54,006 nt of DNA from a virus (taxonomy: Duplodnaviria; Caudoviricetes). Positions 9,312 through 52,400 of the stretch are shown one piece after another. The stretch spans positions 1 to 54,006 of IMG/VR virus record IMGVR_UViG_3300010381_000013; one strand, given 5' to 3'. The notes beneath the pieces are model-generated. The model made no database searches, was not told where the DNA came from, and worked only from the letters and a program-made list of their open reading frames with translations. The position numbers and the translations under genes were made by a program. Position 1 is the stretch's first letter. Each line of letters opens with the position of its first letter.

Positions 9312-9313
9312 CC

Positions 9314-13017: not shown

Positions 13018-13143
13018 GCCTCCCCTACCCCGAAGATGGTGCCGGCGTTGGACGGGGGTACACGATAGGGCCGCGCGGGATGGATGTTTTTTTGCTAGCA
13101 TTTATTGCTTGCATTGATAGCAAAAAATGCTATCTTTATTCTT

Positions 13144-32334: not shown

Positions 32335-34341
32335 ATGGCGTCCGGCGTCTTTTACCCCGCAGCGTCCACGGATACCGGCTATTGGTTCATCAACGGCGGC
32401 TGGTTCCAGCCCTCCGGCTATAACGGCCGGACAGCCGCTGCGGGCAACTACAACGGCAACAGCGAAGGTGCCTGGGCGCGTTTCCAGAATGTCGCCATTC
32501 CCCCGGGGGCGACGATCACGTCCGCGTTCCTGCGGCTCACCTCCAACAACAGCGCCGCAACCTCGTCGACGGTTTCCCTGGCCGTTCGCGCCGAACTGGC
32601 GGATTCCCCCCCCGCGCCGACATCGATCACCGACGCCAACAGCCGTATAAAATCCGACGGCGTGAGCTGGTTTCCCGGCGACTGGACGGCACAGGCCTAC
32701 GACTCCCCGGATATCGCTTCCGCCATCCAGGAGGTCGTGGACAGGGCGGGATGGGAGGCGGGAAACGCCCTACAGATCTTTGTGCTGGATAGCGGAAGCT
32801 CTTTCGGCGCCGAGCGTGCGTTTTACTGCTTTGGCAACGGCACGGGATATCCCGAGCTGCACGTCACCTGGGCGGAAGGGGTCGAAATCCCGACCGACGA
32901 TATTGCCGTGGCCGCCCCTTCCCCGTCCGTCAGGCACATCGTCATCCCGACAAACACGCTCACGGTTTCGTCCCCGCCGGTTTCGATCGGCGACATCCGC
33001 CTTGATTTCATTGTGCGTCATCTGATCCCGGTCGGCCGGGATTTGATGGCACGCCATCTGGCCCCGGGCGTGCTGGCCGATTTCGCGGCAGCGCACAGCG
33101 TGGCCGGCTGGGTGTGGCGCGGCTTCACGGCCGCCCATGCCGTGCCCGCCCTGGTGGCCCGGGCCTTTCGCGCGCGCCATGCCGTGCTCGATATCAACCC
33201 GGCCAGCCGCCAATGGACGTCGCGCCACGGCATCCCGGCCGATACCGCCATTTTCCGGCCGGCATCCTGGTCGGCCGTGTTCGACGACGACGGGTCCCTC
33301 CTGGACCTCTCCGGCGCGACCATCACCGGGGACCGTGAATCCTACGCCTGGAGTGTGGACCTGACCTTGCCCGACGCCGAAGCCTGGGCCGACTGCACGC
33401 CCGGCCGCCGGCTGACGTTGACCGTTTCGGGCATGCCCTTCGCCCTGGTCCTCGAGGGCCGGACCCGGGACCGCGCGGCGACCAGCGCCGAATGGACGGC
33501 CACGGCCCGCACCGTCTCGTGCCTGCTGGGCGAGCCCTACGCCGACAGTCTCACGCAATCCTGGCCGGAAATCACCGCCAGCCAGGCCGCCGCCGAACTG
33601 GCCGCCCTGGCCGGGCTCCCCTGCGCCTGGGAGGTCTGCGACTGGATCTTGCCGGCCGGCAGGCTGACGGCGGACGCCGAAACGCCGGCTGCGGTGCTGT
33701 CCCGTTTGGCCCAAAGCTGCGGCGGCATGCTGCAACCGGCCCCGGCCGGGGGGGTGAGGGTCGTCTACCGCTACCCGGTCGGCGTCACCGAATATGCATC
33801 GGCCACGCCCCGGGCCAGCCTCACCGCGGCCGATGCCGTGCTGACCCTTTCCGAAACCTACAGCGCCCAGCCCGGGTACGACGCGGTCACTGTGGCGGAT
33901 AACCGCGCGGCGTCCGATGCGTATTTGACGTGGGAGCTGGACAGCGACCGCAACGCCGGCCGCGACACGTTCCCCCCGGGCGAGCCCTGCTACCTGCGCG
34001 TGTACCATGAGGTGGACTATGCCGTGCGCGCCACCTCCGGCACCCTGGAGCGGATTGCCGTGGACGAAGAGGAAAGCCTGACCGAGACGGTCGGTTTCGA
34101 CGACGAGGACGCGGCCGATTTGAACAAACTGGTGGCGGCCGTGGACGCGGTCGTCTGGTGGGGGGCGGACCTGGGCGCGGTTGTTCCCAACGGTGGCGGA
34201 AGCGTGCTGCTGTCCGGCGGCGCGGGCTTTTCCGTGGCCGAAATCACCTACCGCACCCGGTACGACGTCTGGAAGCTGATGCCGGCGGCGCTCGGCGAGG
34301 CGTTCCCGGTCATGCTCGAACTGGCGGAGGCGGACACATGA
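32335..34341 (+). CDS. Tail protein: N-terminal putative carbohydrate-binding beta domain plus hub-like C-terminal region
   Basis: ARFQNVAIPPGATITSAFLRLT...SPDIASAIQEVVDRAGW...PELHVTW; C-terminal WEVCDWILPAG...LAQSCGG. Confidence 0.6.
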   Translation: MASGVFYPAASTDTGYWFINGGWFQPSGYNGRTAAAGNYNGNSEGAWARFQNVAIPPGATITSAFLRLTSNNSAATSSTVSLAVRAELADSPPAPTSITDANSRIKSDGVSWFPGDWTAQAYDSPDIASAIQEVVDRAGWEAGNALQIFVLDSGSSFGAERAFYCFGNGTGYPELHVTWAEGVEIPTDDIAVAAPSPSVRHIVIPTNTLTVSSPPVSIGDIRLDFIVRHLIPVGRDLMARHLAPGVLADFAAAHSVAGWVWRGFTAAHAVPALVARAFRARHAVLDINPASRQWTSRHGIPADTAIFRPASWSAVFDDDGSLLDLSGATITGDRESYAWSVDLTLPDAEAWADCTPGRRLTLTVSGMPFALVLEGRTRDRAATSAEWTATARTVSCLLGEPYADSLTQSWPEITASQAAAELAALAGLPCAWEVCDWILPAGRLTADAETPAAVLSRLAQSCGGMLQPAPAGGVRVVYRYPVGVTEYASATPRASLTAADAVLTLSETYSAQPGYDAVTVADNRAASDAYLTWELDSDRNAGRDTFPPGEPCYLRVYHEVDYAVRATSGTLERIAVDEEESLTETVGFDDEDAADLNKLVAAVDAVVWWGADLGAVVPNGGGSVLLSGGAGFSVAEITYRTRYDVWKLMPAALGEAFPVMLELAEADT

Positions 34342-34667
34342 GACTGACGGTTTTACGCGGCAACGGGGCATCCCCCGCGCCCGACGAGCTCACGGCGGAT
34401 CTGGCCTGTTCCGAGGCCCCGGCCACCCAGGCCGGGCGCAATTACCTGGACGAGTACGGCCAGGACGCGGCCGAGGTCGACGTGGCCTGCATGCCCGAGG
34501 CGGCCGTGGGCGTGCTCCTGCCCGGCGAACTGGTGGAGATCGACGACGGCCCGGCGGCGGAAACCTGGCGGGCCACGGTGACCGGCATCGAAATCGCCCT
34601 GGTCGTGGCCGATTCCGGCGCGGCGACGCTGACCCAAACCCTGACCGTGGAGCGGCCCCTTGAGTAA
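34338..34667 (+). CDS. Small tail protein
   Basis: Coupled ATG with GGAGG RBS; LLPGELVEI motif. Confidence 0.55.
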   Translation: MRLTVLRGNGASPAPDELTADLACSEAPATQAGRNYLDEYGQDAAEVDVACMPEAAVGVLLPGELVEIDDGPAAETWRATVTGIEIALVVADSGAATLTQTLTVERPLE

Positions 34668-34932
34668 CGCCCTGGCCCAACTGCGCCGCGTGGTCGCGCC
34701 GGCCCCACGTCGCCGCGCCGCCACCATCGCCCGCATCCTGGCCGGCGGCCGGGTGGAGCTGGCCGTGACGGCCGACACGTCCGGCGCGACTGCCACGGCC
34801 GGAGCGACCGCCGCCCGACCGGTGGTCTACTGCGGCGTGACCGTATCGGTCGGCGACCGGGTCCTTGTCGAGGGCGACCAGGTGGTCAGCCGGCTGGCCC
34901 GGGAGGCGGAGAGGACGGTAAGGATCAGGTGA
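34660..34932 (+). CDS. Small OB-fold-like tail protein, last gene of the late operon
   Basis: VSVGDRVLVEGDQVV motif; overlaps the previous gene. Confidence 0.6.
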   Translation: MSNALAQLRRVVAPAPRRRAATIARILAGGRVELAVTADTSGATATAGATAARPVVYCGVTVSVGDRVLVEGDQVVSRLAREAERTVRIR

Positions 34933-34933
34933 G

Positions 34934-35893
34934 CGCTGGAGTTGACCCCGTTTTCCCTTCTGCTACGCTCTTCTCAATTTGACCCTGCAATACGCACGTG
35001 TTGCGACTTGACCCCGTTTTCCCTTCTGCTACGCTAGACTTTTCCCGCACCCGTGTGCTCTTCACGTTGCGACTTGACCCCGTTTTCCCTTCTGCTACGC
35101 TGGCCTCGTCCCGTGACGATCACCTGATCACGTTGCGACTTGACCCCGTTTTCCCTTCTGCTACGCTCTTGGCGATGAGCTGCATGACGTCGCCGAGGTT
35201 GCGACTTGACTCCGTTTTCCCTTCTGCTACGCTTCGTCCCATCTCTCTCGGACGCGAGAATTAGTTGCGACTTGACCCCGTTTTCCCTTCTGCTACGCTA
35301 GCACATCACAAGCGTCTTTGCAGCCTTCTGTTGCGACTTGACCCCGTTTTCCCTTCTGCTATGCTGGACGCCGGCACCGCCACGGCAGGGGACGAGTTGC
35401 GACTTGACCCCGTTTTCCCTTCTGCTACGCTGCCACGAGAATTCCCCCAGAACCACGTCCAGTTGCGACTTGACCCCGTTTTCCCTTCTGCTACGCTTCG
35501 CCTCCTCTAGTGTTGGCCCAGGGGGTGCGTTGCGACTTGACCCCGTTTTCCCTTCTGCTACGCTCGAGTTTGATAGGCCCGTCGCTGTGGGGAGTTGCGA
35601 CTTGACCCCGTTTTCCCTTCTGCTACGCTCAAACCAGAAGAGTTTAAAACAGTAAAGGCGTTGCGACTTGACCCCGTTTTCCCTTCTGCTACGCTGAACT
35701 CGTCTTACGAGTCGACCTGGGCGGCGTTGCGACTTGACCCCGTTTTCCCTTCTGCTACGCTGGCGTTATGGACAGGCAGCAGCCTGCTTATGTTGCGACT
35801 TGACCCCGTTTTCCCTTCTGCTACGCTCAGACGCACCAACGGCAGGTAGAGCCATGAGTTGCGACTTGACCCCGTTTTCCCTTCTGCTACGCC
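34934..35893 (+). CRISPR. Type II-C CRISPR array: 15 repeats of 36 bp (GTTGCGACTTGACCCCGTTTTCCCTTCTGCTACGCT) and 14 spacers of 29-31 bp
   Basis: Repeats start at 34934 (5'-degenerate), 35000, 35066, 35132, 35198, 35264, 35330, 35396, 35462, 35529, 35594, 35660, 35726, 35792, 35858; + orientation inferred from tracrRNA complementarity and the TGnTAnnnT box. Confidence 0.98.
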
Positions 35894-38800
35894 CCACGTC
35901 GCAAGTAAGTCACTTCTCCGGTTGGGCTGACGTACAAAGGTTTCGCCTGGCATTTGCGAAGCGCTTCCGGGCTCGATTTAAAAATATACGTGAATTCTTT
36001 CGCCTTATATCGTTTATCAGTATTTGCTTCAAAATGCTCTGCAAGAGCGATTTGTTTGGCGGAGAGCTTGACGATGTAGGCGATTATCGCTTTTTCATCC
36101 TGCACGATCTCGATCATATCACCCTTGAAAAGCTTTGTAATCAATTGTCCCGTCGCGGGCGGCGTCTTGGTCTCCGGATTATTGGCGTCGAATGTCGATA
36201 AAATTTCACCAGACCAGGTCGCATCTTCCTGGAGATAGATCGGGTAATAGGCGTTGGCGTCGCCTTTGAATCCTTTGTACGCATAGCCTTGTGCATTGCG
36301 AATGGGAATGATGTCCCATGTTTCAACAAGGCGGATGCGCCGAATGCCTTTCGCTTGGAAAAACTGCTGCGCCTTTTGCTTAAACATTTTATCCGGAAGA
36401 TCATTGAGGGAATCGGTCAATCTTGCGGCCGCCTTACTTTCGGAAAGTCCTTCGCACTCCTGAACAAGAGCCAGGCATTCCGCAAAGGGCCTGCCGCTGC
36501 AGGCGGCAAGGAGACGGGCCCTGATTCCGCGTCCTTTGATCTTGACCAGGTCCCCTGGCTTTGAAAGCGAATCCGCCGAAACACGGTGCTGCGTGTTGTT
36601 CATGGCCTTTGGCGTGGGGTTAACGATGCCATAGGCCGTAGCGTTGTGCAGACGACCCCCAAGTCCGTGGTCGGCGCGATGTGAAACGACGATCCGGTCA
36701 TGGGCGGCAAGGGCTTCTTCGCGAAAGCCGGGCCAGGGTTGCTCAAAATCCGCGAGAAACCGTTCCAAGCCGTTGGCGACCTCCCGCGCGTTGTGGTCCG
36801 CCGCTTTCTTGAGCAGGCTGCGGTCACAAACCCCGATCAGGGCAGCGTCGAGAGCGTGATGGCGGTGATCGTTACGATTTTTCTTCGGGAACCCCCAGGC
36901 GTGGGCCAGTAGGCGCGTCAACCGGCCGGGAGTCACCCAGATTTTGCGTTTGTCGCAAACGCAGGTCAGGTATTCGCCGGCAATGCGCGCAATGTATTGG
37001 GTGTCGACCAATTGTCTGTCCAAAAAATCCGCTTCGCGTTCCAGCCGCTCCATGGCATCGGGCGCGAACCTCCAGCGCTTGTTTTCCGGCAGGCGCGAGG
37101 CGCATTCCGCGATGCCTTCCCAGGAGTAGCCGTCTCGTGAATCGCCGAAGGCCTCATGGGGCGCGCGATTGAGCTTGTAGCGGTTGGCCCGTCGCAGGCA
37201 GACGGTTTTGTTGGCGGGGCTGTCGTCAAGACTACGGCTGAAGGGAAGAATATGGTCGATTTCCACGGCATCGGAAAGCAACATCGACACGCCGATGACT
37301 TCCCCCGTGTACGGGCAGCGTCGGGCCGCAGCATCATGGCCCAGGTCTTCCCACAGGCGGAGCCGCAGCATGGCATCGGCCGTGGGCTTGGCGCCGCATT
37401 CCTCAAGCTGCGCACGGCGCCTGTCGTTGGCGTCTTTGGCCTCCTTTTGCCTTTTACGGATTTTCTGCATCGCGGCCGGGCCGTTTTTCAGATCGCGGGC
37501 GACCTCCACGATGATTTGGGCCGGCTTGCCGTGGTCCTTGATCAATGCGTTGACGACCTTGCGCAACTGGTTGAGGGCGATATGGACAGTCGGATTGGGT
37601 ATGCGCCCCAGACGAACCTCTTGCGGGTCGGAATGCTTTCCTGAGCCGGGCTTGAGACATCGCGGCAGGGCGACACCGTAATAAGGCAGTCGATCAAAAA
37701 CTTCACCGGTCGAGAGGTCGGAATGGGATTTGAAGCCGGCGCGGGCAACCGCATCGCTGTAAGGAATCACATCCTTTTCGAGTTGTTCGCACAAGGCGGC
37801 CAGGGTCTCCCGGCAAAAACGGGCGTAGCCCCTCGGCAAGGCGGCCTGGGCCACGGCGGCCGCCTTGCTTGGGTCGAGGCTGCAATCCGAGACAAGCGCG
37901 GCAACAAGTTCTTCCTCGTCTTCCGCCATGAGGAGATGGTCCACAATCTCTTCACGAAGCTCGCGGGGCAAACATGCCCAGGCTTTGCCGAAATATTTTT
38001 TCCCGGAAAGGATCTTTGCCGTGGCATCGCCCTTGATTCCGTCCTTGGTGTCCGTGTCCAGGTTGAAGGCCACGCTTGGCGGGAGCTTCAGTTTGGCCCG
38101 AATGGCGTCGAAGCCCAGGTCCTTGCCGGTCTCGAGGATGGCGAGCAGGCTATCGCGCTCCTCCACAGTGAGCGGCCGCTCGGTAAGGTTGCCGGTATCG
38201 AGGACGCGCAGATGATTGAGGTCCTGAAGTATGCGGAAACGCTGGGCCACAGGTAGGGCGCGAGGCGCGCGCGGATAACGGGGCATCAGGGTGCACAGCC
38301 CAGGAGTGACAGGTTTGAGGGGGCGCTGAAAGAAAATGATGTCCCGGAGCCCTCCTCGCCCTTCGACGATTCGAGCAAGTTGGGGATGAAAGGGTGACTG
38401 CGCGGCGATGATCGCGTCAAATTCGGCTTCGGCCAGGGAGCGTTGCGGATAGAACGCATAATCAACCCCAGCGCCTTTCTTCACCGGACGGAAGCGGACC
38501 GGTCGGCCGGACTGACGGCAGTTGTGCAGGTATTCGCCAAGCGTCCGCATTCCGGACTGCTTCAGGCTGGCCGTCAACCTGGTGATGGCGGCTTTTATCT
38601 TTCCCGACTCCTGATCGTTGTCCGTCTTGCGGTTGCTTTTAAAGCCGCGTCGCTGGTTGAGATGGAACAACGCGCGACCGAGTTCAAATGGCTCCAGCCG
38701 GGAATCCAGGGCCTTCGCGCGCAGCCCGTAGGGATCAAGCGCCGCAAGTTGTTTCCGCTCACGCTCGTTGGAGGGCATGAACCCGTTCTGTATCAGAGCC

Positions 38801-39042
38801 TCAAGCAGCTCCTTGCGCCTTTTGAGAAACCGGTCTCGGCGTTTCCGCGCCTGTTTGGCCAACCGCCTGTCCTCGGCCAGGGATGTGCCGCTTTTGGCGT
38901 CACGCCCATCCGAAAAGATGCGAACCCCCATGCCCAGGATACCCTCGGGAGTGCCTTCCGGAAGCAATTTGAGCATGCACCAGCCGATGGAATTTGTGCC
39001 GAGATCCAGGGAAAGACGGTATGGGATTTGTTCGCTGGGCAC
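35887..39042 (-). CDS. cas9: Compact type II-C Cas9 (1051 aa) with intact catalytic motifs
   Basis: RuvC-I LSLDLGTNSIGW; Arg-rich bridge helix; RRGFKSNRK; RuvC-II IIVEVARDL; HNH EIDHILP...NK...N; RuvC-III HHALDA; AGGAGG RBS before GTG. Confidence 0.98.
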   Translation of the reverse strand: MPSEQIPYRLSLDLGTNSIGWCMLKLLPEGTPEGILGMGVRIFSDGRDAKSGTSLAEDRRLAKQARKRRDRFLKRRKELLEALIQNGFMPSNERERKQLAALDPYGLRAKALDSRLEPFELGRALFHLNQRRGFKSNRKTDNDQESGKIKAAITRLTASLKQSGMRTLGEYLHNCRQSGRPVRFRPVKKGAGVDYAFYPQRSLAEAEFDAIIAAQSPFHPQLARIVEGRGGLRDIIFFQRPLKPVTPGLCTLMPRYPRAPRALPVAQRFRILQDLNHLRVLDTGNLTERPLTVEERDSLLAILETGKDLGFDAIRAKLKLPPSVAFNLDTDTKDGIKGDATAKILSGKKYFGKAWACLPRELREEIVDHLLMAEDEEELVAALVSDCSLDPSKAAAVAQAALPRGYARFCRETLAALCEQLEKDVIPYSDAVARAGFKSHSDLSTGEVFDRLPYYGVALPRCLKPGSGKHSDPQEVRLGRIPNPTVHIALNQLRKVVNALIKDHGKPAQIIVEVARDLKNGPAAMQKIRKRQKEAKDANDRRRAQLEECGAKPTADAMLRLRLWEDLGHDAAARRCPYTGEVIGVSMLLSDAVEIDHILPFSRSLDDSPANKTVCLRRANRYKLNRAPHEAFGDSRDGYSWEGIAECASRLPENKRWRFAPDAMERLEREADFLDRQLVDTQYIARIAGEYLTCVCDKRKIWVTPGRLTRLLAHAWGFPKKNRNDHRHHALDAALIGVCDRSLLKKAADHNAREVANGLERFLADFEQPWPGFREEALAAHDRIVVSHRADHGLGGRLHNATAYGIVNPTPKAMNNTQHRVSADSLSKPGDLVKIKGRGIRARLLAACSGRPFAECLALVQECEGLSESKAAARLTDSLNDLPDKMFKQKAQQFFQAKGIRRIRLVETWDIIPIRNAQGYAYKGFKGDANAYYPIYLQEDATWSGEILSTFDANNPETKTPPATGQLITKLFKGDMIEIVQDEKAIIAYIVKLSAKQIALAEHFEANTDKRYKAKEFTYIFKSSPEALRKCQAKPLYVSPTGEVTYLRRGA

Positions 39043-39071
39043 TTGACGTCCTCCTGTTTGTTTGGCAATCT
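39043..39071 (+). promoter_or_regulatory. Candidate sigma70 promoter for tracrRNA, overlapping the cas9 RBS
   Basis: TTGACG-17 nt-CAATCT with a TG extension. Confidence 0.5.
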
Positions 39072-39077
39072 CGCTTT

Positions 39078-39168
39078 ACCCTTTGTAGCAGAAGGGAAAA
39101 CGGGGTCTTCAGTAAGTCGTTAACAAGCTGAAGAGCACCAGCAAGGCGGGCTGCGGCCCGCCTTTTTT
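39078..39168 (+). ncRNA. tracrRNA
   Basis: 23-nt perfect anti-repeat GTAGCAGAAGGGAAAACGGGGTC (39085-39107), bulge, AAGTCGTTAAC lower stem, nexus region, then GGCGGGC-TGCG-GCCCGCC-TTTTTT terminator (39145-39168); 5' end approximate. Confidence 0.92.
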
Positions 39169-39171
39169 ATT

Positions 39172-39282: not shown

Positions 39283-39312
39283 TTCACATAGAATTTCCAA
39301 GACAGGTATAAT
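39283..39312 (+). promoter_or_regulatory. Candidate sigma70 promoter for the HNH-HIT gene
   Basis: TTCACA-18 nt-TATAAT. Confidence 0.5.
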
Positions 39313-39448
39313 AGAACAGTAGTCCTGTACATCAAGTTTTTCAAGAGAGTGGTCAATAAATTGCATTTTGACTCGCCAGCCACTACCCGGGTACCAGGAT
39401 GGCCAGGCCGCAGCCGAGGGGATGAACTTCCAACAGTGGGCATATCCG

Positions 39449-40423
39449 ATGCGATTCGACGAATTGGTGGATTTTCTCGAGCACAGGATGACGATGCAGC
39501 ATATTTACCAGCCGCTGCTGATTCGTTCGCTTGTGGATGCCGGGGGCTCGGCGACCATCCGGCAACTGGCGCTGGCCTTCCTGGGGCAGGATGAGAGCCA
39601 GATTGTTTTTTATGAGCGGAAGATCAAGGAGATGCCGCTCAAGGTGCTGCGGCGGCACGGGGTGGTGGCGTCGCACGGCGAACTGGTGGAGCTGACGGCG
39701 GGGCGGCTTTCCTTTGAGGAGAAGACCCAGATCCGCATGCTTTGTGACCGGAAGCTCCAGGAGTACATGCTCAAGCGGGGCCTGGGGATCTGGGAATATC
39801 GGATGCTGGAGACCGAGCCCGTGCCCGGGAGCCTGCGCAATCGCGTGCTGGCGGAATCCGGCGGCCGGTGCGCGCTGTGCGGGGCCACGAACAAGGACCG
39901 CCCTCTGGACGTGGACCACATCAAGCCCCGGTCCAAGGGCGGCAAGAACGAATACGCCAACCTGCAGGTCCTCTGCTCCCGCTGCAACAGGGCCAAGGGG
40001 AACAAGGAGGACACGGACTATCGGCCGCTGGTGGCGGAGGATGCGGTTCCTGGTTGTCCGTTCTGCTATGAGGCCATCGAGAGCCGGATCGTGGAGGCGT
40101 ATGATTCCGTGGTGGCCATTCCGGACGGCTTTCCGGTGACCGCAGGACACCTGCTTGTCATCACGAAGCGCCATACGCCGGACTGGTTTTCCATGTCCCA
40201 GGCGGAGCGCAACGACGCCGACAGTCTGCTGCGGATACTCAAGAACCAGCTAAGCGAGGACGACCGCAGTATCACCGGCTTCAATATCGGCATGAACGCC
40301 GGCGCATCCGCCGGGCAGACTGTGTTTCATGTTCATATCCATCTTATCCCGAGACGGGACGGGGATACGGAGAATCCACGCGGTGGGGTGAGAGGGGTGA
40401 TTCCTGGGAAGATGAGTTATTAG
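39449..40423 (+). CDS. HNH endonuclease-HIT hydrolase fusion (start may lie upstream at 39422 or 39368)
   Basis: CALCG...DVDHIKP...NLQVLCSRCNRAK HNH; CPFC, FPVTAGHLLVI, AGQTVFHVHIHLIPR HIT. Confidence 0.9.
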   Translation: MRFDELVDFLEHRMTMQHIYQPLLIRSLVDAGGSATIRQLALAFLGQDESQIVFYERKIKEMPLKVLRRHGVVASHGELVELTAGRLSFEEKTQIRMLCDRKLQEYMLKRGLGIWEYRMLETEPVPGSLRNRVLAESGGRCALCGATNKDRPLDVDHIKPRSKGGKNEYANLQVLCSRCNRAKGNKEDTDYRPLVAEDAVPGCPFCYEAIESRIVEAYDSVVAIPDGFPVTAGHLLVITKRHTPDWFSMSQAERNDADSLLRILKNQLSEDDRSITGFNIGMNAGASAGQTVFHVHIHLIPRRDGDTENPRGGVRGVIPGKMSY

Positions 40424-41286: not shown

Positions 41287-41489
41287 GGAGCCTCCGGTCT
41301 ATGCATTCAATATAGGGCGTGAGGCCGTCTTTTCACAATGGCCAGACAGCATGGCTATACGGCTTCGCCGTCGGTCGGGCCGGGCATCCGGTGGCTTCCA
41401 GCCGCAAGGGATACCTGCGTCGCACGGTTATTCCGGCGCTAGGCCTCACCAGGGTAAAGATAAGAGGCGACCTATCTCGCGATGCACCA

Positions 41490-42674
41490 TCACGGCTGTT
41501 GTTTTTTTGAAGGTATTTCGAGGATCGATCCTATGAATCCAATAGGAATGAGTTGCAATGAAAAGGTGAGCAAAAAAGATGAAAAGAGAAATAAACGGAT
41601 ATGGAATATGCTTGTAATGTCTCCAAAGTTGTGTCTTTGCCAATACAAGTAGACATATACCATGGCACACAGGCTCGCTATGATAAGAACTGAGGCAATA
41701 ACAATAATTTTTTCAAGCGAGATTAGTCTGAAAAATTTCATCGACTTATTGTCAAGAGGCAGAAAACCACGCTCTGCAGAAAATTTTCGAATGACGGTAA
41801 ATAGTAAAACGGATTGAAGTCCACCCATTGTTAATATACAACCAACAACAAAAGTATTATTATCTAGTCTGACAGCACCGATTTCAAGGGGGCCACCAAT
41901 AAGTAAAATAACAACAATAAGTCCTATTGTAGTAAAAAATAATCCAGGTATGAGAAACAACCATTGCGGGCTATACATAAGTAAAAAACGCAAGTGTCTC
42001 CACCCGTCTGTCCATGTTTTCAAGTGCGGTGGTCGAGTTCGGCCGTCTACGGAGAGAGTTGTTGGAACTTCTCGAATGTTTAAATTTTCCAATGCCGCAC
42101 GGACAATCATTTCGCTTGCAAATTCCATCCCTGTTGTGTTTAATGATAGTCTTTTTATCGCGCTTGTTTTAAACCCTCGCAGACCGCAATGAAAATCACC
42201 ACATGGAGATCCAAACAATACCTTACCAATAAAGCTAAGGACTGGATTGCCAAGATATCTGTGGCTAAGGGGCATGGCACCCTGTTCGATACATCCTAAA
42301 AATCTGTTACCAATAACAAGCTCAGCACCATTTCGAAGTTCTTGTACAAATAAATCAAGATTGCTAAAGTCGTAGCTATCATCAGCATCACCCATGATGA
42401 TAAAATGACCATGCGCAGCTTCGATCCCTTTTAACAGTGCGGAACCATAGCCCCTTTGGGGCTCTGAAATGATTCGAGCGCCATGTGTAGTTGCAATTTG
42501 GAGCGAACCGTCAGTACTTCCATTGTCCGCTATAAGTATTTCTCCTTGTATTCCTGTCCTGTTTAAAAAATTGAACGCCTTGTCAATACAGATTGCCAAA
42601 GTCTCTGCTTCATTGAGGCACGGCATTAATATTGTAAGTTCGATGTCCGTATTTTCGTCAGAGCGAAAAGTCAT
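41490..42674 (-). CDS. GT2 polyprenol-phosphate glycosyltransferase (GtrB/DPM-like) with C-terminal TM segments
   Basis: ILMPCLNE, IADNGSTDGS, GYG, MGDADDSY (DxD), DFHCGLRG, MEFASEM. Confidence 0.9.
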   Translation of the reverse strand: MTFRSDENTDIELTILMPCLNEAETLAICIDKAFNFLNRTGIQGEILIADNGSTDGSLQIATTHGARIISEPQRGYGSALLKGIEAAHGHFIIMGDADDSYDFSNLDLFVQELRNGAELVIGNRFLGCIEQGAMPLSHRYLGNPVLSFIGKVLFGSPCGDFHCGLRGFKTSAIKRLSLNTTGMEFASEMIVRAALENLNIREVPTTLSVDGRTRPPHLKTWTDGWRHLRFLLMYSPQWLFLIPGLFFTTIGLIVVILLIGGPLEIGAVRLDNNTFVVGCILTMGGLQSVLLFTVIRKFSAERGFLPLDNKSMKFFRLISLEKIIVIASVLIIASLCAMVYVYLYWQRHNFGDITSIFHIRLFLFSSFLLTFSLQLIPIGFIGSILEIPSKKQQP

Positions 42675-42699
42675 TTCCTACACCCTAAGCTCCTGTCGA

Positions 42700-44358
42700 T
42701 CAATTTGCTAGAGAACCCTTTCCATAGCATTTGAGTTCTAACTTTGGGGCATCAGGAGATAAAACCCATATATATCTGTCAAAAAAGTAGTGGGTCAATG
42801 CGCCGTTTTTTTGCTTGTCAAGGTATCTTGCCCAAACTATTTTTGAATCATCAATATCTGCTCCATTGTAAACCCATTCAGCATGAGGCGAGTGCCTTTG
42901 CGAATATTTTACAAGAACAAGATGTTTCCCAGGAATCTTTGATAATGACTCAGAAAGAATAACACGCATTTTTTGCCATGGTATAAATTTTTTATTAAAT
43001 TCCATCTGATAGTTAAAATCGAGCGCTGCAAAAAAAATGAGAGAAATGACGATTGCCCTTGTAATAGTTTTTCCAGAAAGGAAATTCAGCAGGTTTATTT
43101 CATAGAGATGTGACATAAGACTAACGATAATAATATATATAAGGCCTGTGGCTGGTGCGGCATAATGGTTTTGTTGGTAGGTGCAGACCATGAGCCCGGC
43201 CCCAAAAAAAAGAAAAATGAGGAGGCATGCTTGCAAAGGCGGTTCTCTCAAAATTCTGCGGAAGATTATAAACGGAATAAGCAAGACAAATCCAAAATAA
43301 AAATTACTATATTTAATGGTTTTATCTGAAATTGAAGCTATAAACCCTGTAATCGTCTGTTCCTTAAGATACTCTGAATATGTAATTTTAAAAAGTTTAA
43401 GCATTTCAGAGTTATACAATTGTGGTTGTCGAACAAACTTTTCAAATACAAAATTTGGAACTCCATCATGCTGCCTAGCGTATTCAATATAAGGCAATTC
43501 AAAGTAGTTATTTGTTATTGCCTTGTTGTAGATAAGCATGGATGAAGCTGTAGCAATTAAAACAACAAAAAGTGGAGTAAAAAATTTTAATAGTATATTA
43601 TGCCATGTTTCTTCACTTTTTATTAATAAAATGCATACTAAGGTGAGTAGCGGTAAGATTATTAGCACCCCTTCATAGGGTCTACTGCAAGCTAAAATTG
43701 CGATTCCAGCTCCCAAAATAATCGAATGCCGTATTGTAATATTCGAAATAAGCCGTCTCGCCGCGCCAAAAATGAGCGCGCCGCCAAAGGCGGCAACGGC
43801 ACCGCCCCAGTAGCTTTGGCTCCAATAGGCATCCTTGGAAATCATAACCTGGAGAAACGCAATGTAAGCGCCACAAACAGCCCATCCTGGCCCCACCCAG
43901 GCCTGGAGCATCCAGCAAATACCAGCGCACGCCGCTGCAACGCTAAGCCACACGCCGATGATAGGAGTGTTGTCGATAATTTTTCCCAGAGCTAAGACGA
44001 CTCCTTGGGCAGGGGGGTATTTGCTAGCGTATGTGGGATGTTGCAGGACATGAAACGTATCGAAGTTGACCGAACAAGGATGTGAAGGATTGGCCAATCG
44101 CCCTTTGCTAAATGTATCTGCCTGAAGTAGATAGCTATATTCATCATGAATTTTGGGAACTGGTATTCCCATAACCATTGCATATAAACCACAAAATAAA
44201 AAAGTAGTAAAAAAAACGGTGACTATTGCCAACTTTTTGTGCTTAGAAAATTGCGATAGAACAAGCTCAATACGGGAGAATGCTGGAAATGTTATCGAGC
44301 GAGTTACGGTCAAGAGAATCAAGACAACGAAGAATACAAGCATTTGTTGAAAAAACAT
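42700..44358 (-). CDS. Polytopic membrane protein, probable GT-C-fold glycosyltransferase
   Basis: HDEYSY acidic motif after the first TMs, SKYPP, SRPYEG; many TM segments; AT-rich; upstream of the GT2 gene. Confidence 0.65.
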   Translation of the reverse strand: MFFQQMLVFFVVLILLTVTRSITFPAFSRIELVLSQFSKHKKLAIVTVFFTTFLFCGLYAMVMGIPVPKIHDEYSYLLQADTFSKGRLANPSHPCSVNFDTFHVLQHPTYASKYPPAQGVVLALGKIIDNTPIIGVWLSVAAACAGICWMLQAWVGPGWAVCGAYIAFLQVMISKDAYWSQSYWGGAVAAFGGALIFGAARRLISNITIRHSIILGAGIAILACSRPYEGVLIILPLLTLVCILLIKSEETWHNILLKFFTPLFVVLIATASSMLIYNKAITNNYFELPYIEYARQHDGVPNFVFEKFVRQPQLYNSEMLKLFKITYSEYLKEQTITGFIASISDKTIKYSNFYFGFVLLIPFIIFRRILREPPLQACLLIFLFFGAGLMVCTYQQNHYAAPATGLIYIIIVSLMSHLYEINLLNFLSGKTITRAIVISLIFFAALDFNYQMEFNKKFIPWQKMRVILSESLSKIPGKHLVLVKYSQRHSPHAEWVYNGADIDDSKIVWARYLDKQKNGALTHYFFDRYIWVLSPDAPKLELKCYGKGSLAN

Positions 44359-44552
44359 ATGATATTAATGGAAGACGGTAAGATAAAGATTGGGAAGGCT
44401 ATTGATATTCGCTCTCTTGCCCCGAACCCCAGCTTCTTCACCTTCCGGGCTGGGATGCGCTTGTGTCCATGACCAGCTCAGCCTGGATACTCCCGTCTGT
44501 GAGTATTTTTCCCGTTGGCACATGAGACTGCCTCAACATCCCCTCACTCTGC

Positions 44553-45623
44553 CTAGGCGTTGGCCGGCGCTTCGTAGCTCTTGAATGTCTCCATGATCCG
44601 CTCCGCGTACTTGAAGATGTCGTTCAGGCTTTCCAGGGGAACACGCTCTTCTTTTTTGGCGGCATCGAACAGGCCGAGGTATTTCGTTGAACCGTTCAAG
44701 TGGAGGCGGCAGAGCGGCTTGCGATTCGTGTCGTCCAGCAGGACGCCCATGTAGCCTTGTGTATCACGCGCCGCGATGCGGGCGGGATCGCAGCATTCCC
44801 GGAGGATCGCCTTGACGGTCAGATAGCCTTCGATTTCTTCCTGCGTCGTTTCGATCTTCGACTTGGCTGGCTGCTCCAGCACCGCCTCTGTGGGAGGCGC
44901 GGCAGCCGGGGTGGTCACGGTCATCGCGCCCTTCAGGCGTTCGTTGATGCGCTCATCGATGAGCTTGGCGAACGCGCGTTTGATGATCGGGGTGAACTGC
45001 TCCTTGACGGCGGCGGTCATGCGACCCGTATAGACCCGGCCAATGAAAAAGCGGGCGAAATCCTCGGATGGCGTTTCGAGCTCACTGGCCAACAGTTTCT
45101 TGGCTTCCCGCGTGTATTTGAGTTCCATGGCACAGGACAGCGTTTGATCCAGGTCAAACTGTGTCTTGGTCATCTTCTTGAGTTCGGGGACAAGGGACAG
45201 GTCGAGGTCTTCCAGGTCGACGATCATGAACGGCCTGCTGTCCATCTTGTTGGGTTCATCCAGGTCGGTGAAGAAATGGTAGCGCGCGCCGTCTGTAAGC
45301 AGCGCCACGCGGCAGGCGGTCACGGCGAAATAGCGATAGAGCTGGCCCGATGCTTCGGACAGGTCGGCCCCGTATTGTTTGACTTCGACGATGAAGATCG
45401 GCTTTTCGTTCAGGCAGATGGCGTAATCGACTTTCTCGCCTTTCTTGATGCCGTGGTCGGCGGTAAACTCCGGGACCACTTCCTTCGGGTTGAACACATC
45501 ATAGCCGAGCGTCTGCAAAAACGGCATGACGAGGGCAGTCTTGGTCGCTTCCTCGTTGGCGAGATGATCTTTGAGCTTGGCAGTGCGATTCGCAAGTTCC
45601 TGGATTTGGTCAATGAAGTCCAC
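44553..45623 (-). CDS. HsdR-N-like PD-(D/E)xK endonuclease, stand-alone prophage type
   Basis: NEEATKTALVMPF..LGYDVFNP.EV.PEF, EKVDYAI, IVEVK, LLTDG; AAGGAG RBS before GTG. Confidence 0.85.
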   Translation of the reverse strand: MDFIDQIQELANRTAKLKDHLANEEATKTALVMPFLQTLGYDVFNPKEVVPEFTADHGIKKGEKVDYAICLNEKPIFIVEVKQYGADLSEASGQLYRYFAVTACRVALLTDGARYHFFTDLDEPNKMDSRPFMIVDLEDLDLSLVPELKKMTKTQFDLDQTLSCAMELKYTREAKKLLASELETPSEDFARFFIGRVYTGRMTAAVKEQFTPIIKRAFAKLIDERINERLKGAMTVTTPAAAPPTEAVLEQPAKSKIETTQEEIEGYLTVKAILRECCDPARIAARDTQGYMGVLLDDTNRKPLCRLHLNGSTKYLGLFDAAKKEERVPLESLNDIFKYAERIMETFKSYEAPANA

Positions 45624-45691
45624 GCCATTCTCCTTGCTAAATAGATACATCCACTCGTTTAATGGAAAAGTATAAATTACACAATTTCTGC

Positions 45692-45970
45692 TCAGTTATT
45701 ATCCATGTCCAGCGTCCGATAATCACCTAACGTGTTGTCATAGACATTCACTTCAACCCCTGCCCCTGAACCCTGGATGCTGTCAACCGTCACATCGTGG
45801 TAATTCCCCGTGTTGTAGTCGTAAATCTCAATATCCATTCCTGGACGGACCAGATTGCCTTTCTCTATCTCGACATAGCCTCCACTGTTGTAATCAAATC
45901 CGTCCCAGGCCAAAGCTGGAGATGCAGTCACTAGGATGCACAACATGATCATAGCCAGAGAATATCGCAT
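45692..45970 (-). CDS. Small secreted protein (DUF5334-like)
   Basis: Signal peptide ending ALA; WDGFDY...VEIEKGNLVRPG...EIYDY. Confidence 0.65.
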   Translation of the reverse strand: MRYSLAMIMLCILVTASPALAWDGFDYNSGGYVEIEKGNLVRPGMDIEIYDYNTGNYHDVTVDSIQGSGAGVEVNVYDNTLGDYRTLDMDNN

Positions 45971-46164
45971 GGCCTCTCCCCACATTTTCCCATCAGTTAA
46001 ATTAAATCTACGAACATCGTCCTTTCTCCCTGTCCTTTTATTAGTCCTATGCTGATTACTCTTCATGACGACGGCATTAAAGCGTCAGTGATACGTTTCT
46101 TAGGTGTTCTGGAGACGTTTGTAGTCTTGCATCTCGCTTCTCAGTAGCTCTAAATTTTTATATA

Positions 46165-46629
46165 TTACGGGTGTTCAGCTATCCCTTTTGCCCGAGCTTC
46201 ATCCGCCAATTCGTCAACCATCCCATTGGTTGTAATAAATTGCTCAAAAGACCAACCGCCTGTAGCAGAGTTCGAACGGTTGTATAAGTCAACAGCGACA
46301 TCAAGGAGCGATGATTGGCTGTAATAGTTTAAGTTCTCGCTACGATAACGGGTGATGTTGATCACGGTTTTCGGGGTATATCCATCGCGTTCAATCCTAA
46401 GGATGGATTCGTATTTCGTTTTATTGGCGCGATCTGCAAATATTCTTCGGCACAACCGCATAGCGGCATAAACTGCCATATCCGAATTTAGGTTTTTTGT
46501 TTTCTTAACAATACAGTCGTCAATGGAGTTATAGGCTTCAAGTGTGCCGCTGTTGTTGTATGCAAAATAGGATAAATATAATATGAAACATATTACGATG
46601 AATGCAGCAATTCCTGCTAAAGTTTTCAT
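46165..46629 (-). CDS. Membrane-anchored hypothetical protein
   Basis: N-terminal TM segment, 154 aa, AT-rich. Confidence 0.6.
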   Translation of the reverse strand: MKTLAGIAAFIVICFILYLSYFAYNNSGTLEAYNSIDDCIVKKTKNLNSDMAVYAAMRLCRRIFADRANKTKYESILRIERDGYTPKTVINITRYRSENLNYYSQSSLLDVAVDLYNRSNSATGGWSFEQFITTNGMVDELADEARAKGIAEHP

Positions 46630-46700
46630 TGTAAAATGCTATTTGGTGCCGTTGTGTTAGTGCTTATTTATGGCAATTGATGCCTAGATAAACTGTTCTT

Positions 46701-47162
46701 TTATGCCGCAATAGAAAATATGACCATGCAAGCAAGGGAAATGATGACTGACAAAAAAACAAGACCTGCGATTCCTTTTGTTGGCATTTTGGGTACTTTT
46801 GACTCAATTTCTCTTTTGCTAAACCGAGGGGGAAGAGAAAGCATGTTTTCAGTTTTATGTATAAACGCTTTAAGAGTAAGAGCCTCGCTTTGGTCGGTCC
46901 TCCATGTTCCAAGCCAAATGCAAAACAGTATATAGTAAAATGAAGAGGCTAAGGATAGAAATGAAAGGAGAGCGTGTGGATGTGTTCTGAAATATTCAAT
47001 TTCGTGTGTAAGTATATTCCCAAAGAAAACAGTAAGACATACTAGTATCTTTGTAAAAATGTCATGGTGTTTTAGTAGGACATTGTTTGTTTCGGCTAGC
47101 TGCTTATTCTGAATTTTATAATGCTCAACAAGGATGTTGTTGTTTTTTTTGTTCTTGTGCAT
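46701..47162 (-). CDS. Three-TM membrane protein
   Basis: Hydrophobic segments; AT-rich; downstream of the repressor. Confidence 0.55.
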   Translation of the reverse strand: MHKNKKNNNILVEHYKIQNKQLAETNNVLLKHHDIFTKILVCLTVFFGNILTHEIEYFRTHPHALLSFLSLASSFYYILFCIWLGTWRTDQSEALTLKAFIHKTENMLSLPPRFSKREIESKVPKMPTKGIAGLVFLSVIISLACMVIFSIAA

Positions 47163-47316
47163 CAGCTGGTGTCCCTGTCTTTTGTTGGGTAAGAATGCTT
47201 AGCTCAAAAAGAACATCCCCAAAAACTTCCCAAACTTCGCCTTTTCTTCCTGTATCTTCGTCACGTCCTCTTAGACCACTCTTGCTTCAGAGCTCCTTGC
47301 TTAATGAATAGTCCCT

Positions 47317-47808
47317 TTAGATGTCTTTCCCGAAGTCAGACCCGGGTTCATGGATGTTATTATATCCAGGAGCGGCCGGAGGTTCGGCCGTCGCGTAGGT
47401 ACTTTTCGGGGCGCGGGTCTTGCCCATGGCGATGGCTTCGATGCCATCGATGATCCGTTCGGGCGCCGCGCCCAACTCCTGCATGGTCCGCTTATAGGTC
47501 AGCATCTCCCGTTGGGCGGGCGTCAACTTCTCGTTGAGTTCTTCCAATGGGATGGCCGGCGTTTCAGCCTGCCCCTGGTCACCGAGCATTTCCCCTTCGC
47601 CAGTCAAAAGCCAATGTCCGTTGATGTGAAACGCACGTACCCAGCCAGCAAGGCATGTAGCCCCTGGTTCGCGGATAGCGGCCAAGTAGCCGCTTAGTGA
47701 TTGCGCCGTAACACCGCCGGCCTGGGCGAAAAGCTTTTTCTCAACCTTCAAGCTTTGGATAACAAGCTTAATCCTATCGGATAGCTCAATTAATTCTGGG
47801 CGTTGCAT
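47317..47808 (-). CDS. CI-like XRE HTH repressor without an evident S24 peptidase domain
   Basis: DRIKLV...FAQAGGVTAQSLSGY...REPG...INGHWLLTGEGEM; divergent from cro; start uncertain (47808 or 47871). Confidence 0.8.
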   Translation of the reverse strand: MQRPELIELSDRIKLVIQSLKVEKKLFAQAGGVTAQSLSGYLAAIREPGATCLAGWVRAFHINGHWLLTGEGEMLGDQGQAETPAIPLEELNEKLTPAQREMLTYKRTMQELGAAPERIIDGIEAIAMGKTRAPKSTYATAEPPAAPGYNNIHEPGSDFGKDI

Positions 47809-48017
47809 TGTTGGCGATGTTTTTTTTGCGCTATAATTCGCATTTTTAATTGACGACTTCACTATTTTCACCTAAAACAACAATTGAGCGAATTAAGACG
47901 CATCCCAATTACCAAGGACACGGCCGAGGGCAGAGGTCGCACCAAAAATTTCGTCCTGAAGGACGGATTCGGCGGTCGGACCCTGCATAATCAGTCATCC
48001 TACCAAGAGGTTATTCG
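47809..48017. promoter_or_regulatory. Lysis/lysogeny switch region
   Basis: AT-rich; TTGACG(47850)-17 nt-TAAAAC; inverted TAATTCGC/GCGAATTA flanking the promoter. Confidence 0.55.
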
Positions 48018-48549: not shown

Positions 48550-49002
48550 ATGGCACGCAAATTCGATTCCCTGGTCGAGGTGCTTCACGAAGACGTCCTT
48601 GACGCGCCCTCCGGACTGACGCCGGGCGAAATCGGGGAGGAGCTTGGTTTCTCCCGCTACAACACGTTCATGAACCAGATTTCGCAGCAGGACGGTTTCA
48701 AGCTCGACGCCAACATGGTGTTGCCGTTGATGCGCAAGACCGGGTCGAAACGGCCGCTGCACTATCTCGCGGCGCGCATGGGTTGCGTGGTCATCGACCG
48801 GCCGCACGCGGCGGCGGGGACGGACACCCTGGCCCGGCAGGCCATCAAGGCCGTGGAAGAGGTCGGGGACGTCATGCGGGTTTTCCTCGAGACGTCCGGC
48901 GACGGGGACATCAGCGCCCAGGACAAGCGCGACGTGCACAAGGAAATCTACGAAGCCGTGCAAGCCTTGATCGCTTTCGACAAGGCCCTGGAGATCGCCT
49001 GA
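48550..49002 (+). CDS. Phage regulatory CII-like protein
   Basis: N-terminal HTH, PLHYLAARMG, EVGDV...DGDISAQDK motif. Confidence 0.75.
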   Translation: MARKFDSLVEVLHEDVLDAPSGLTPGEIGEELGFSRYNTFMNQISQQDGFKLDANMVLPLMRKTGSKRPLHYLAARMGCVVIDRPHAAAGTDTLARQAIKAVEEVGDVMRVFLETSGDGDISAQDKRDVHKEIYEAVQALIAFDKALEIA

Positions 49003-50961: not shown

Positions 50962-51228
50962 ATGGTCGGCATACTCGCATCGTGTGTGGATTTGATCGAG
51001 ATCCCGGAGGAAGGGCCCGACATGGAAGGAATACGCGCCCTCAAGCTCCACCAGGACGCGGCCGAGGCCATGGCCGACGCCGCCCAGGCGGAAACCCGGC
51101 TGCGGCATCTGCTCGGCCATCACGCCCTGGTGCTGCATCCCGACGCCCAGAAAGCTGCCCGCGACTGCCTGGACGCCCTGGACCGCCTGGACACCCTCGG
51201 CCGCAAAGCCCGGGAATTGGGGGTGTAG
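50962..51228 (+). CDS. Hypothetical protein
   Basis: AGGAG RBS, 88 aa, helical. Confidence 0.55.
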   Translation: MVGILASCVDLIEIPEEGPDMEGIRALKLHQDAAEAMADAAQAETRLRHLLGHHALVLHPDAQKAARDCLDALDRLDTLGRKARELGV

Positions 51229-51230
51229 CC

Positions 51231-52400
51231 ATGTGCGCCGCGCCCCTCTCCATCCTCCGCGACGACCTTCTGGCCGCGCTCACCAGGGCGGCGTCCGCCG
51301 TGGCGGCCAAGAAAGACCCCGTCAGCGGCAGCGTCTGGTGCGACGCTACATCCAGCCCGCACGGGCTGGTCACCATCACGGCCACGGACGGCACCCTGGA
51401 CGTCCACTGCCGGCTGACGGCCGCCCCCGGGTTCGATCCGTTCCAATGCGGCCTCCCGGCCAAGAAATCCCTGGATCTGGTGTCGCGGCTCCCGTCGGCC
51501 CCGATCACCCTTTCCCCGGACCCGGACGCCGGCATGCTGCGGCTGCGCTGCGGCCGGACCCGGGCCAGCCTGCCCATGGCCGACTGGCGCTATGCGCCGA
51601 CGCTGGAGCCGCTGCCGGCGACAACCCATCCTCTTGATCCGGCGCCGCTGGCCGCCGCCATTGCCGCCGCCGCGCCCTCTGCCGGAGACAGCGAGGAAGG
51701 CCTCGATCAGGTGCGTTTCACGCCCTTTGGCGACCCCGGCATGCTCCGGGTCGAGGCGCTCGACGGCCACCAGTTCGTGCGCGTGGACGTCGCGCCCCAG
51801 GGCGGCCGGCAAGGTTGGTGGCAGACCGTGCCCGACGCCTTCGGCGTGGAAGCGCGCCGCATGGCCACCGGCGCAAAATGGCTCGAAACGGCCCGGGCCA
51901 TGGCCGTCTCCGACAAGCGCCTGTTTTTCACCGACGCCGTGGGCTGGTGGAGCCTGCCCGTGCGGCGCGGCATCTGGGTCGATACGGACCGGCTCATGGC
52001 CAAGGTCGAGGACGTCTACGCTGTGGATATCCGCGCCCAGGCTTTTGCCGAGGCGGCCGAACGGCTGGCCATCTACCTGCCCGAGGGCTCGAAGAATATG
52101 TGCCTGACCATCGGCCAGGGAGACGCGTCCCTCTGCCTGCCGGCCGTGCGCGGTTTCGAGCCCTTGGAGTCACTGGCAAGGGCTGTTCCGCAAACCCTTC
52201 GGGTGGTCATCCCGGGCGTGGAGTTCGGGCGGTTCCTGCGCCGCGCGCCGTCCGAATCGGTCCGGCTTTGCTGCGGCGGGCCGCTCCATCCCATTGGCGT
52301 TTTCCCGCTCCATGGCGACCAGTTCCAGGAAGGCTGGGCCGGCATCTTCATCGGCTGCGAGGACGACGTCGCGGCCTACACCAGCGAGGAAGCGGCATGA
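51231..52400 (+). CDS. Divergent DNA polymerase III beta-clamp (DnaN)-like protein
   Basis: About 390 aa; LSILRDDLLAALTRA, ITATDG, LPAKKSLDLVSRLP and EALDGHQF parallel DnaN motifs. Confidence 0.7.
   Translation: MCAAPLSILRDDLLAALTRAASAVAAKKDPVSGSVWCDATSSPHGLVTITATDGTLDVHCRLTAAPGFDPFQCGLPAKKSLDLVSRLPSAPITLSPDPDAGMLRLRCGRTRASLPMADWRYAPTLEPLPATTHPLDPAPLAAAIAAAAPSAGDSEEGLDQVRFTPFGDPGMLRVEALDGHQFVRVDVAPQGGRQGWWQTVPDAFGVEARRMATGAKWLETARAMAVSDKRLFFTDAVGWWSLPVRRGIWVDTDRLMAKVEDVYAVDIRAQAFAEAAERLAIYLPEGSKNMCLTIGQGDASLCLPAVRGFEPLESLARAVPQTLRVVIPGVEFGRFLRRAPSESVRLCCGGPLHPIGVFPLHGDQFQEGWAGIFIGCEDDVAAYTSEEAA

Follow-up and report, generated by a model that had tools for sequence, protein, structure and literature searches.

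How does a temperate phage come to carry a CRISPR array, a cas9 gene and a trans-activating CRISPR RNA (tracrRNA) without cas1 or cas2, and what would such a module do for it? The question is raised by the IMG/VR virus record IMGVR_UViG_3300010381_000013, whose 54,006 nucleotides were analyzed over their full length and are called the window below. An initial annotation of this DNA had described a minimal, prophage-borne type II-C system. We consider it likely that the locus is a frozen-memory, interference-only module derived from type II-C and directed against rival mobile elements, which is carried by a temperate phage and arose from a complete locus by deletion.

The window was compared with relatives obtained from a pattern search with its Cas9. 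These were two cellular genomes, L002 (Desulfovibrio sp. DV, NZ_MLBG01000121.1) and L003 (metagenome-assembled genome OH_SBB_109, JAFABC010000183.1), and one IMG/VR contig, L001 (IMGVR_UViG_3300031111_000018). Their Cas9 proteins showed 81 %, 76 % and 54 % identity to that of the window, respectively.

Array, Cas9 and tracrRNA

Repeat finding on the window returned 15 direct copies with a spacing of 65-67 nt at 34934-35893, and Tandem Repeats Finder reported 13.5 copies with a period of 66. The CRISPR array at these positions is composed of 15 repeats of 36 nt and 14 distinct spacers of 29-31 nt (30 nt in 12 of the 14, 31 nt in one and 29 nt in one). Both lengths, 36 nt for the repeat and about 30 nt for the spacer, agree with a type II array. 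When the repeats were extracted by coordinates, 11 of the 15 were identical to the 36-nt consensus and three, at 35198, 35330 and 35858, deviated by a single base. The repeat next to the tail genes (34934-34969, +) is a degenerate trailer repeat in which six of the first eight bases deviate from the consensus; it begins 1 nt past the TGA (34930-34932) of the open reading frame (ORF) at 34660-34932. The array of L003 likewise closes with a degenerate repeat, at the end distal to its cas genes. At the other end of the window's array, the cas9-proximal repeat (35858-35893, +) carries a T>C change at its final base and holds the cas9 stop codon TAG (minus strand, 35887-35889). An array and a Cas9 are present as described at the outset; however, since the last repeat overlaps the cas9 stop codon, the two are fused rather than merely adjacent.

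The cas9 gene (35887-39042, -) has a GTG start and encodes 1051 aa with RuvC and HNH motifs present. The protein matched TIGR01865 (cas_Csn1) across the whole profile, with residues 8-1043 on profile positions 1-1070 of 1070 (E 1.4e-181; score of 606 bits, cut-off 100). Pfam domains HNH_4, RuvC_III and Cas9_a (helical lobe) were found in it, and the PADLOC Cas9 models matched at E 1e-93. In a six-sequence alignment (A3), D13, E513, H597, N620, H729 and D732 were invariant, and the RuvC and HNH motifs line up with those of a solved Cas9 chain. We take D13, E513, H729 and D732 to be the catalytic residues of RuvC and H597 and N620 to be those of HNH. The full-profile match and the invariant residues bear out the first description of a 1051-aa Cas9 with RuvC and HNH residues.

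The same protein had also been put forward as a candidate compact Cas9, a point that needs qualification. The nearest solved chains have 1055-1095 aa and the Cas9 relatives 1035-1123 aa, and 1051 aa is an ordinary size in this group. The top Protein Data Bank (PDB) sequence matches were chains of 1082-1095 aa (E 3e-69 to 1e-60), presumably GeoCas9 and Nme Cas9. In this sequence search, they ranked above the chains of St1, Sa and Sp Cas9. The neighbors in the Cas9 tree described below all carry cas9-cas1-cas2 only.

The tracrRNA lies at 39085-39170 on the + strand and consists of an anti-repeat (~39084-39124, with bulges of 6 nt and 1 nt), a linker, a terminator and a T-run. The terminator is a GC-rich hairpin of 9 bp at 39143-39164. 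The anti-repeat pairs with 34 of the 36 nt of the repeat, at -56.5 kcal/mol compared with -23.6 ± 3.7 for 500 shuffles. Both the duplex energy and the terminator agree with the tracrRNA first placed at 39085-39168. The region is conserved in four loci, and conservation ceases at the T-run. In the predicted fold, compensatory changes were seen in 2 of 22 pairs, of which one belongs to the terminator stem and the other to a hairpin further upstream. At the gathering score, Rfam matched only tRNA and no tracrRNA family. The tracrRNA strand is fixed by the terminator, and therefore the crRNA-sense strand of the array is also +, so that it runs with the tail operon and against cas9.

Upstream of the tracrRNA, 39043-39078 (+) is a possible promoter region for it. 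The region, which contains TTGACG at 39043-39048, directly adjoins the start codon of cas9 on the opposite strand and shows conservation in L002 and L003; a sigma-70 promoter scan flagged nothing in it. Another promoter-like site, with 9/12 matching positions, was seen at 39308-39335 (-), ~265 nt upstream of cas9. A cas9 transcript from this site would cross the tracrRNA gene in antisense.

Taken together, array, Cas9 and tracrRNA are packed into ~4.2 kb between tail genes and an accessory block, with 14 spacers, in the structure given originally. The absence of adaptation genes from the window was also confirmed: none of the Pfam models for Cas1 (PF01867), Cas2 (PF09827), Csn2 (PF09711) and Cas4 (PF01930) had a match at E <= 1 anywhere in the 54,006-base record. 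As in type II-C, csn2 (II-A) and cas4 (II-B) are both lacking. The cas1 and cas2 genes that type II-C has in the cas9 operon are missing from the window and present in its two closest relatives. The window holds a II-C derivative without an adaptation module, not a complete II-C locus.

Complete relatives, the deletion junction and selection on cas9

The gene order in L002 and L003 is host genes, tRNA-Arg, integrase, CII, CI-like repressor, a BRCT protein, cas9, cas1, cas2, a 73-nt leader and the array, which is followed by tail-fibre genes in L003. Their Cas1 and Cas2 proteins, of 305 aa and 109 aa, match the Pfam Cas1 and Cas2 models. Both loci resemble the window in having the identical 36-nt repeat, a near-identical tracrRNA, and the same placement with respect to the integrase, CII and CI-like genes. 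They differ from it in that cas1, cas2 and the 73-nt leader stand between cas9 and the array, whereas the window lacks all three. Furthermore, the window has no spacers in common with L002 or L003, its integrase shows 32-34 % identity to theirs, and an additional ~8 kb of cargo separates its tracrRNA from CI.

The point of difference was located by alignment of the cas9 3' ends (A1). Homology reaches approximately codon 1046 and is followed by 12 unrelated bases and then by the repeat. The 12 nt at 35894-35905, which have no clear homologue, form the deletion junction. At this point, L002 and L003 continue with the cas9 tail, cas1, cas2 and the leader, and ~1.3 kb is missing in the window, where cas9 now stops at the TAG within the first repeat. 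A single deletion of ~1.3 kb in a complete prophage-borne locus removed cas1, cas2 and the leader along with the final ~5 codons of cas9, and joined the cas9 frame to the first repeat.

The direction of the change was read from a maximum-likelihood Cas9 tree of 18 sequences. The window was sister to L002 (100/98), and L003 was next (100/100). Because the window nests with L002 and L003, both of which bear cas1-cas2, the absence of these genes is derived. Among ten genome loci examined with their flanks (Cas9 49-81 % identical), cas1 and cas2 were found beside cas9 in nine, and the tenth showed cas2 only (coverage filter). The "minimal" system of the initial annotation lacks cas1 and cas2 as stated; judged from these alignments and the tree, its layout is the derived deletion state of a complete II-C locus and not a designed architecture.

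A comparable loss may have occurred in L001. Its cas9-array region at 4958-9545 encodes a 1089-aa Cas9, with an array of 17 repeats ~200 nt beyond. The gene order is CII-like, repressor, phrog_4747 ATPase, cas9, array, tail-fibre assembly and J-like fibre, and Cas1 was not found in its whole 40-kb record, which is 47 % complete. In the tree, L001 falls into a weakly supported group (81/90) with cas1/2-bearing loci, outside the strongly supported clade of the window. This placement suggests a second, independent loss of cas1-cas2 in a phage lineage.

The junction was also searched for in Logan contigs. X1 and X2 come from two runs of one sample, which may be the source sample, and X3 comes from another study. 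The X1 and X2 contigs (18.3 kb) read from cas9 into the terminal repeat with 0 differences from the window. The X3 contig (6.6 kb) has the same junction and is identical across it, with 82 differences in 3538 nt and 0 indels overall. All three extend from the repeat across cas9 past 39400. The junction is present in independent contigs, and therefore the architecture is not an artefact of a single assembly. In addition, X3 shares the junction at a cas9 divergence of ~2.3 %; therefore, time has elapsed since the deletion with the frame kept open. Thirty-one of the X3 differences were examined; they alter 26 codons of the C-terminal part, 14 of them synonymously and none to a stop.

The dN/dS of cas9 was 0.094 between the window and L002, 0.104 between the window and L003, and 0.094 between L002 and L003, both of which are complete; these values are rough, with dS saturated at 1.3-1.6. 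The repeat and the tracrRNA are nearly invariant, compared with a cas9 dS of ~1.3. These rates indicate that cas9 is under purifying selection.

The X3 data also bear on whether the array is frozen. At 34815-35227, one X3 contig shows the same junction of tail gene and trailer repeat, with a different spacer right after the trailer repeat. Another X3 contig departs from the window sequence at 34914, just ahead of the array. Together these contigs suggest related phages with other array content, or without CRISPR cargo, at the same site. The array might still turn over spacers, either through Cas1-Cas2 supplied in trans by a II-C system with near-identical repeats in the host or a co-resident prophage, or through repeat-mediated recombination with arrays of that kind; if so, the phage would be parasitic on the adaptation machinery of its host. 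The spacer after the X3 trailer repeat is the sole hint of such turnover, and the loss of one spacer in the window lineage explains it equally well. We regard continued turnover as doubtful.

The same evidence bears on the idea that the module is a decaying relic, which fell out of use after cas1, cas2 and the leader were lost and whose cas9 is intact because too little time has passed. The loss of the adaptation genes and leader is consistent with decay, as are the changed C-terminal tail of Cas9, the single substitutions in 3 of 15 repeats, and the failure of any spacer to find a detectable target in the searches made. However, cas9 is open across 1051 codons, and X3 shares the exact junction with 82 substitutions, no indel and no stop, with synonymous changes in more than half of the codons examined (14 of 26). 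The dN/dS of the window (~0.09) is not above that of the cas1/2-bearing pair, and the tracrRNA and 11 of 15 repeats are unaltered. A relic is therefore an unlikely explanation.

Probable guide supply, spacer searches and possible counter-defence

We infer expression, cleavage and the identity of the targets, and the exclusion of rival phages or plasmids in particular from anatomy, selection and analogy. All 15 repeats contain TTGAC(C/T), 16 nt and TGn-TA(C/T)GC(T/C), as exemplified at 35338-35365 (+) by TTGACC, 16 nt and TG-n-TATGCT; these promoter-like elements are consensus matches only. The repeats of related arrays end in TGCTACAAT, TGCTACGAT or similar. In N. meningitidis and C. jejuni, promoters embedded in II-C repeats initiate crRNAs in the spacer (PMC5965381). 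By analogy, crRNA is probably supplied from repeat-embedded promoters in the window, which would explain the guide supply from a leaderless array. Furthermore, no terminator-like site was found between the stop of the last ORF of the tail cluster and the array. With a gap of only 1 nt and no terminator seen, late transcription could therefore read into the array.

In the proposed mechanism, crRNAs would be transcribed from the + strand through the repeat promoters (TTGACC-N16-TGn-TACGCT), through read-through of the late operon, or both. They would pair with the tracrRNA and load Cas9, which would then cut the DNA of a rival phage or plasmid that enters the lysogen or co-infects. Because Cas1-Cas2 and a leader are both absent, the element cannot add spacers by its own genes. 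There would be no acquisition in cis, and the 14 guides would be a frozen memory as far as the element's own genes go.

Targets of the 14 spacers were sought in several collections. The whole array (960 nt) had no match at E <= 10 among INPHARED phages. PLSDB plasmids gave two weak 32-nt matches (88-91 %, E 0.9 and 3) on the GC-rich spacer S07, which were judged to be chance matches and rejected as targets. Against 401 genomes of the family of G001, the array matched 28 genomes at E <= 0.01, and the strong matches were all homologous arrays or anti-repeats. Where a spacer alone matched in these genomes, the match was 23-28 nt long and fell on common coding motifs or on a tandem repeat of low complexity. 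The only near-full-length spacer match was that of S07 (80 % GC) to a 24-nt tandem repeat in L037 (G353:C91) at ~1250-1690, with 25/26 and 26/28 bases. The G353 repeat encodes a GRGG-type low-complexity protein and was set aside as probably a chance or low-complexity match. No further match to the 14 spacers was found elsewhere in the window or in 83 loci, and a 24-nt stretch of one of the 14 spacers had 0 matches in IMG/VR and 0 in the JGI metagenomes. Conversely, 300 unique spacers from the arrays of relatives gave no match of more than 18 nt to the window.

Several of these results weigh against a working interference module. No protospacer, and hence no protospacer-adjacent motif (PAM), was found for any of the 14 spacers in the phage, plasmid, family-genome, window and locus searches. 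In the sigma-70 scan, only one of the 15 repeats passes (the TATGCT copy), and the standard repeats lie below the threshold. Run X1, the one labelled metatranscriptomic, gave an 18.3-kb contig equal to that of the DNA run, an agreement that points to carried-over DNA, and the depth over its flanks was even. Its summed depth is higher over the array, a difference confounded by multi-mapping repeats. Two internal repeats carry point mutations, and the C-terminus of Cas9 was altered by the deletion (...VTYLRRGA in the window and ...VTYMRIMRHADPGDRRL in L002). Even with these points counted, interference against rival mobile elements is the reading we favor.

An alternative use of the module would be counter-defence or host manipulation. 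Cas9 might be turned against host-encoded satellites, defence islands or resident prophages, or Cas9 and the tracrRNA might capture the crRNAs of a host type II system. Precedents are given in a review (PMC11656645), namely the type I-F system of phage ICP1, which acts against the PLE satellite, and a phage-encoded Cas9c plus tracrRNA, for which sequestration of host crRNAs is the proposed role. Arrays of same-family genomes have near-identical repeats, and host crRNAs could in principle pair with the window's tracrRNA. However, the 14 spacers have no convincing match in the 401 same-family genomes, and the window shows no self-targeting. The RuvC and HNH residues are intact, unlike those of the inactivated Cas9c, and the element is a temperate phage with its own 14-spacer array. 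We consider counter-defence improbable, and the exclusion of rival elements is retained below.

Phage context and known systems

IMG/VR classes the record as a provirus, and CheckV puts its completeness at 98 %. It ends at gene boundaries: base 1 belongs to the stop codon of a GtrII gene and base 54006 to the ATG of the integrase gene. To the left of the array lie genes for a GpA-type terminase, portal, protease, major head, major tail, a 1410-aa tape measure, and tail proteins up to 34932. To the right of the tracrRNA, an HNH-HIT fusion gene and a low-GC cargo block come first. Next are genes for a CI-like repressor, a CII-like regulator and replication, and the integrase stands last. The CI-like repressor (47317-47871, -) is 61 % identical to an HTH_3/Phage_CI_repr protein of L002, the CII-like regulator (48550-49002, +) matches Phage_CP76, and the tyrosine integrase (52819-54006, -) has its ATG at the end of the window. 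The module is cargo in the accessory region of a lambda-like temperate siphovirus, between the tail genes and the CI/CII/integrase block, and the host is probably a member of the Desulfovibrionaceae. With phage genes on both sides, the near-complete provirus call, and an order shared with three other assemblies, the original description of the module as prophage-borne stands.

It is very improbable that a chromosomal locus between two mobile elements was swallowed by the provirus caller, or that the assembly is chimeric: a prediction tool did trim the window to gene boundaries, no att site can be seen, and the low-GC block at 41-48 kb would be foreign DNA inserted beside the module, but lysogeny genes, cas9, array and tail-fibre genes occur in this order in L003 and L001, the tRNA-Arg and integrase lie only ~3 kb from cas9 in L002, independent contigs of 18.3 kb (X1/X2) and 6.6 kb (X3) span the repeat through cas9 beyond 39400, and the chromosomal relative L079 has a quite different neighborhood. 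In L079, the locus is surrounded by genes for a phosphate transporter, PhoU and kinases. No homologue of any phage protein of the window except Cas9 was found in L076-L083 and L045.

The variable cargo next to the module begins with the gene at 39368-40423 (+), which adjoins the tracrRNA and encodes a 351-aa fusion of HNH (~157-216) and HIT (237-331). It is preceded by an 11/12 sigma-70-like promoter at 39283-39312. The protein showed a weak PADLOC likeness to PtuB (HNH) and ThsC (HIT). Its gene is missing at the same position in L001-L003, which marks it as variable cargo, and it is possibly a defence or anti-defence gene. The low-GC block follows at ~41300-47200 (-), with a GC content of 40-52 % compared with 60.6 % for the window. 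It encodes a GT2 glycosyltransferase, a 552-aa family-less protein, an HSDR_N-domain protein, a DUF5334 protein and three small family-less ORFs, and it seems to have been inserted later, between the CI-like repressor and the CRISPR module. Apart from Cas9, PADLOC detected no known defence system among the cargo genes.

At the left edge, a GtrII-type glucosyltransferase gene (1-1500, -; GC 36-38 %) lies near a tRNA-Leu (anticodon TAG) at 1828-1912 (+). In serotype-converting phages, O-antigen-modifying genes adjoin att sites, and the GtrII/tRNA-Leu edge is similar. In a search for att sites, none of the 13-mers of the tRNA-Leu region was repeated elsewhere in the window.

The late operon closes with tail genes at 32335-34932 (+), where ORFs of 668 aa and 169 aa match phrog_6079 and a 90-aa ORF ends at the array. 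The first two (32335-34341 and 34158-34667, +) overlap in different frames and match positions 285-497 and 519-602 of the 605 of phrog_6079; they may be a frameshifted or split tail-fibre gene. Other genes were noted further away. A HicB antitoxin-family gene (13410-13742, +) with a small ORF before it (region from 13105) lies between the terminase and portal genes, and 13105-13742 is a possible HicAB pair inside the packaging module. A fusion of phage DAM-like and GNAT-like domains (PF22555 and PF22559) is encoded at 7475-8824 (+). The 472-aa product of 50982-52400 (+), in the early region, resembles the DNA polymerase III beta clamp in its N-terminal domain.

The locus offers a natural example of a mobile element streamlining a captured CRISPR-Cas system, with one lineage of temperate phages that keeps the complete locus and a sister in which a single deletion has shortened it. 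Apart from the end of cas9, what the window lineage lost is exactly the adaptation genes plus the leader. That cas9, tracrRNA and array have survived this deletion under purifying selection argues that interference alone pays for a prophage. The leaderless array also fits the idea that II-C arrays with repeat promoters manage without a leader. In practical terms, the window supplies a II-C Cas9 of ordinary size with a fully defined predicted natural crRNA:tracrRNA pair from an under-sampled host group.

Among known systems, the type II-C system of Neisseria meningitidis (Nme1Cas9) is alike in its Cas9 of ~1050-1080 aa, its 36-nt repeats ending in TG-n-TAC..T, and its requirement for a tracrRNA. 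The crRNAs of N. meningitidis can start from promoters inside the repeats (PMC5965381), whereas the repeat promoter of the window is a consensus match only. Moreover, the Neisseria system is chromosomal and has cas1-cas2, whereas the window module is on a prophage without adaptation genes or a leader.

In phages of < 200 kb, CRISPR systems are rare according to a 2024 review (PMC11656645). The same review describes two phage-encoded counterparts. Like the window's module, the type I-F system of Vibrio phage ICP1 is a phage-encoded CRISPR-Cas system, and it serves conflict between mobile elements. However, ICP1 is lytic and its system is class 1 and complete with an adaptation module, with a known spacer target (PLE), whereas the window's phage is temperate and its module is class 2 without adaptation genes. 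Phage Cas9c and the window both combine a Cas9 homologue with its own tracrRNA on a phage (PMC11656645). Cas9c has an inactivated RuvC and is proposed to be a crRNA sponge, whereas the Cas9 of the window has its residues present and a 14-spacer array beside it.

A published category for such loci is found in the PGD50 survey (Front Microbiol 2025), in which 741,692 phage genomes yielded 299 CRISPR-Cas systems. II-C is one of the commonest subtypes there, and 5 of its 28 systems have no Cas1/Cas2/Cas4 (PMC12676247). The window fits this category of II-C systems without adaptation genes. Phage-borne II-C loci, including those without adaptation genes, are already counted in surveys, and the window opens no new category. 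The accessible text of PGD50 gives counts and describes no deletion junction, synteny with complete relatives, or tracrRNA (PMC12676247). The present analysis adds sister loci that are complete and occupy the same prophage position, places the deletion junction exactly, recovers it in a second study, and points to a possible independent loss in another phage lineage.

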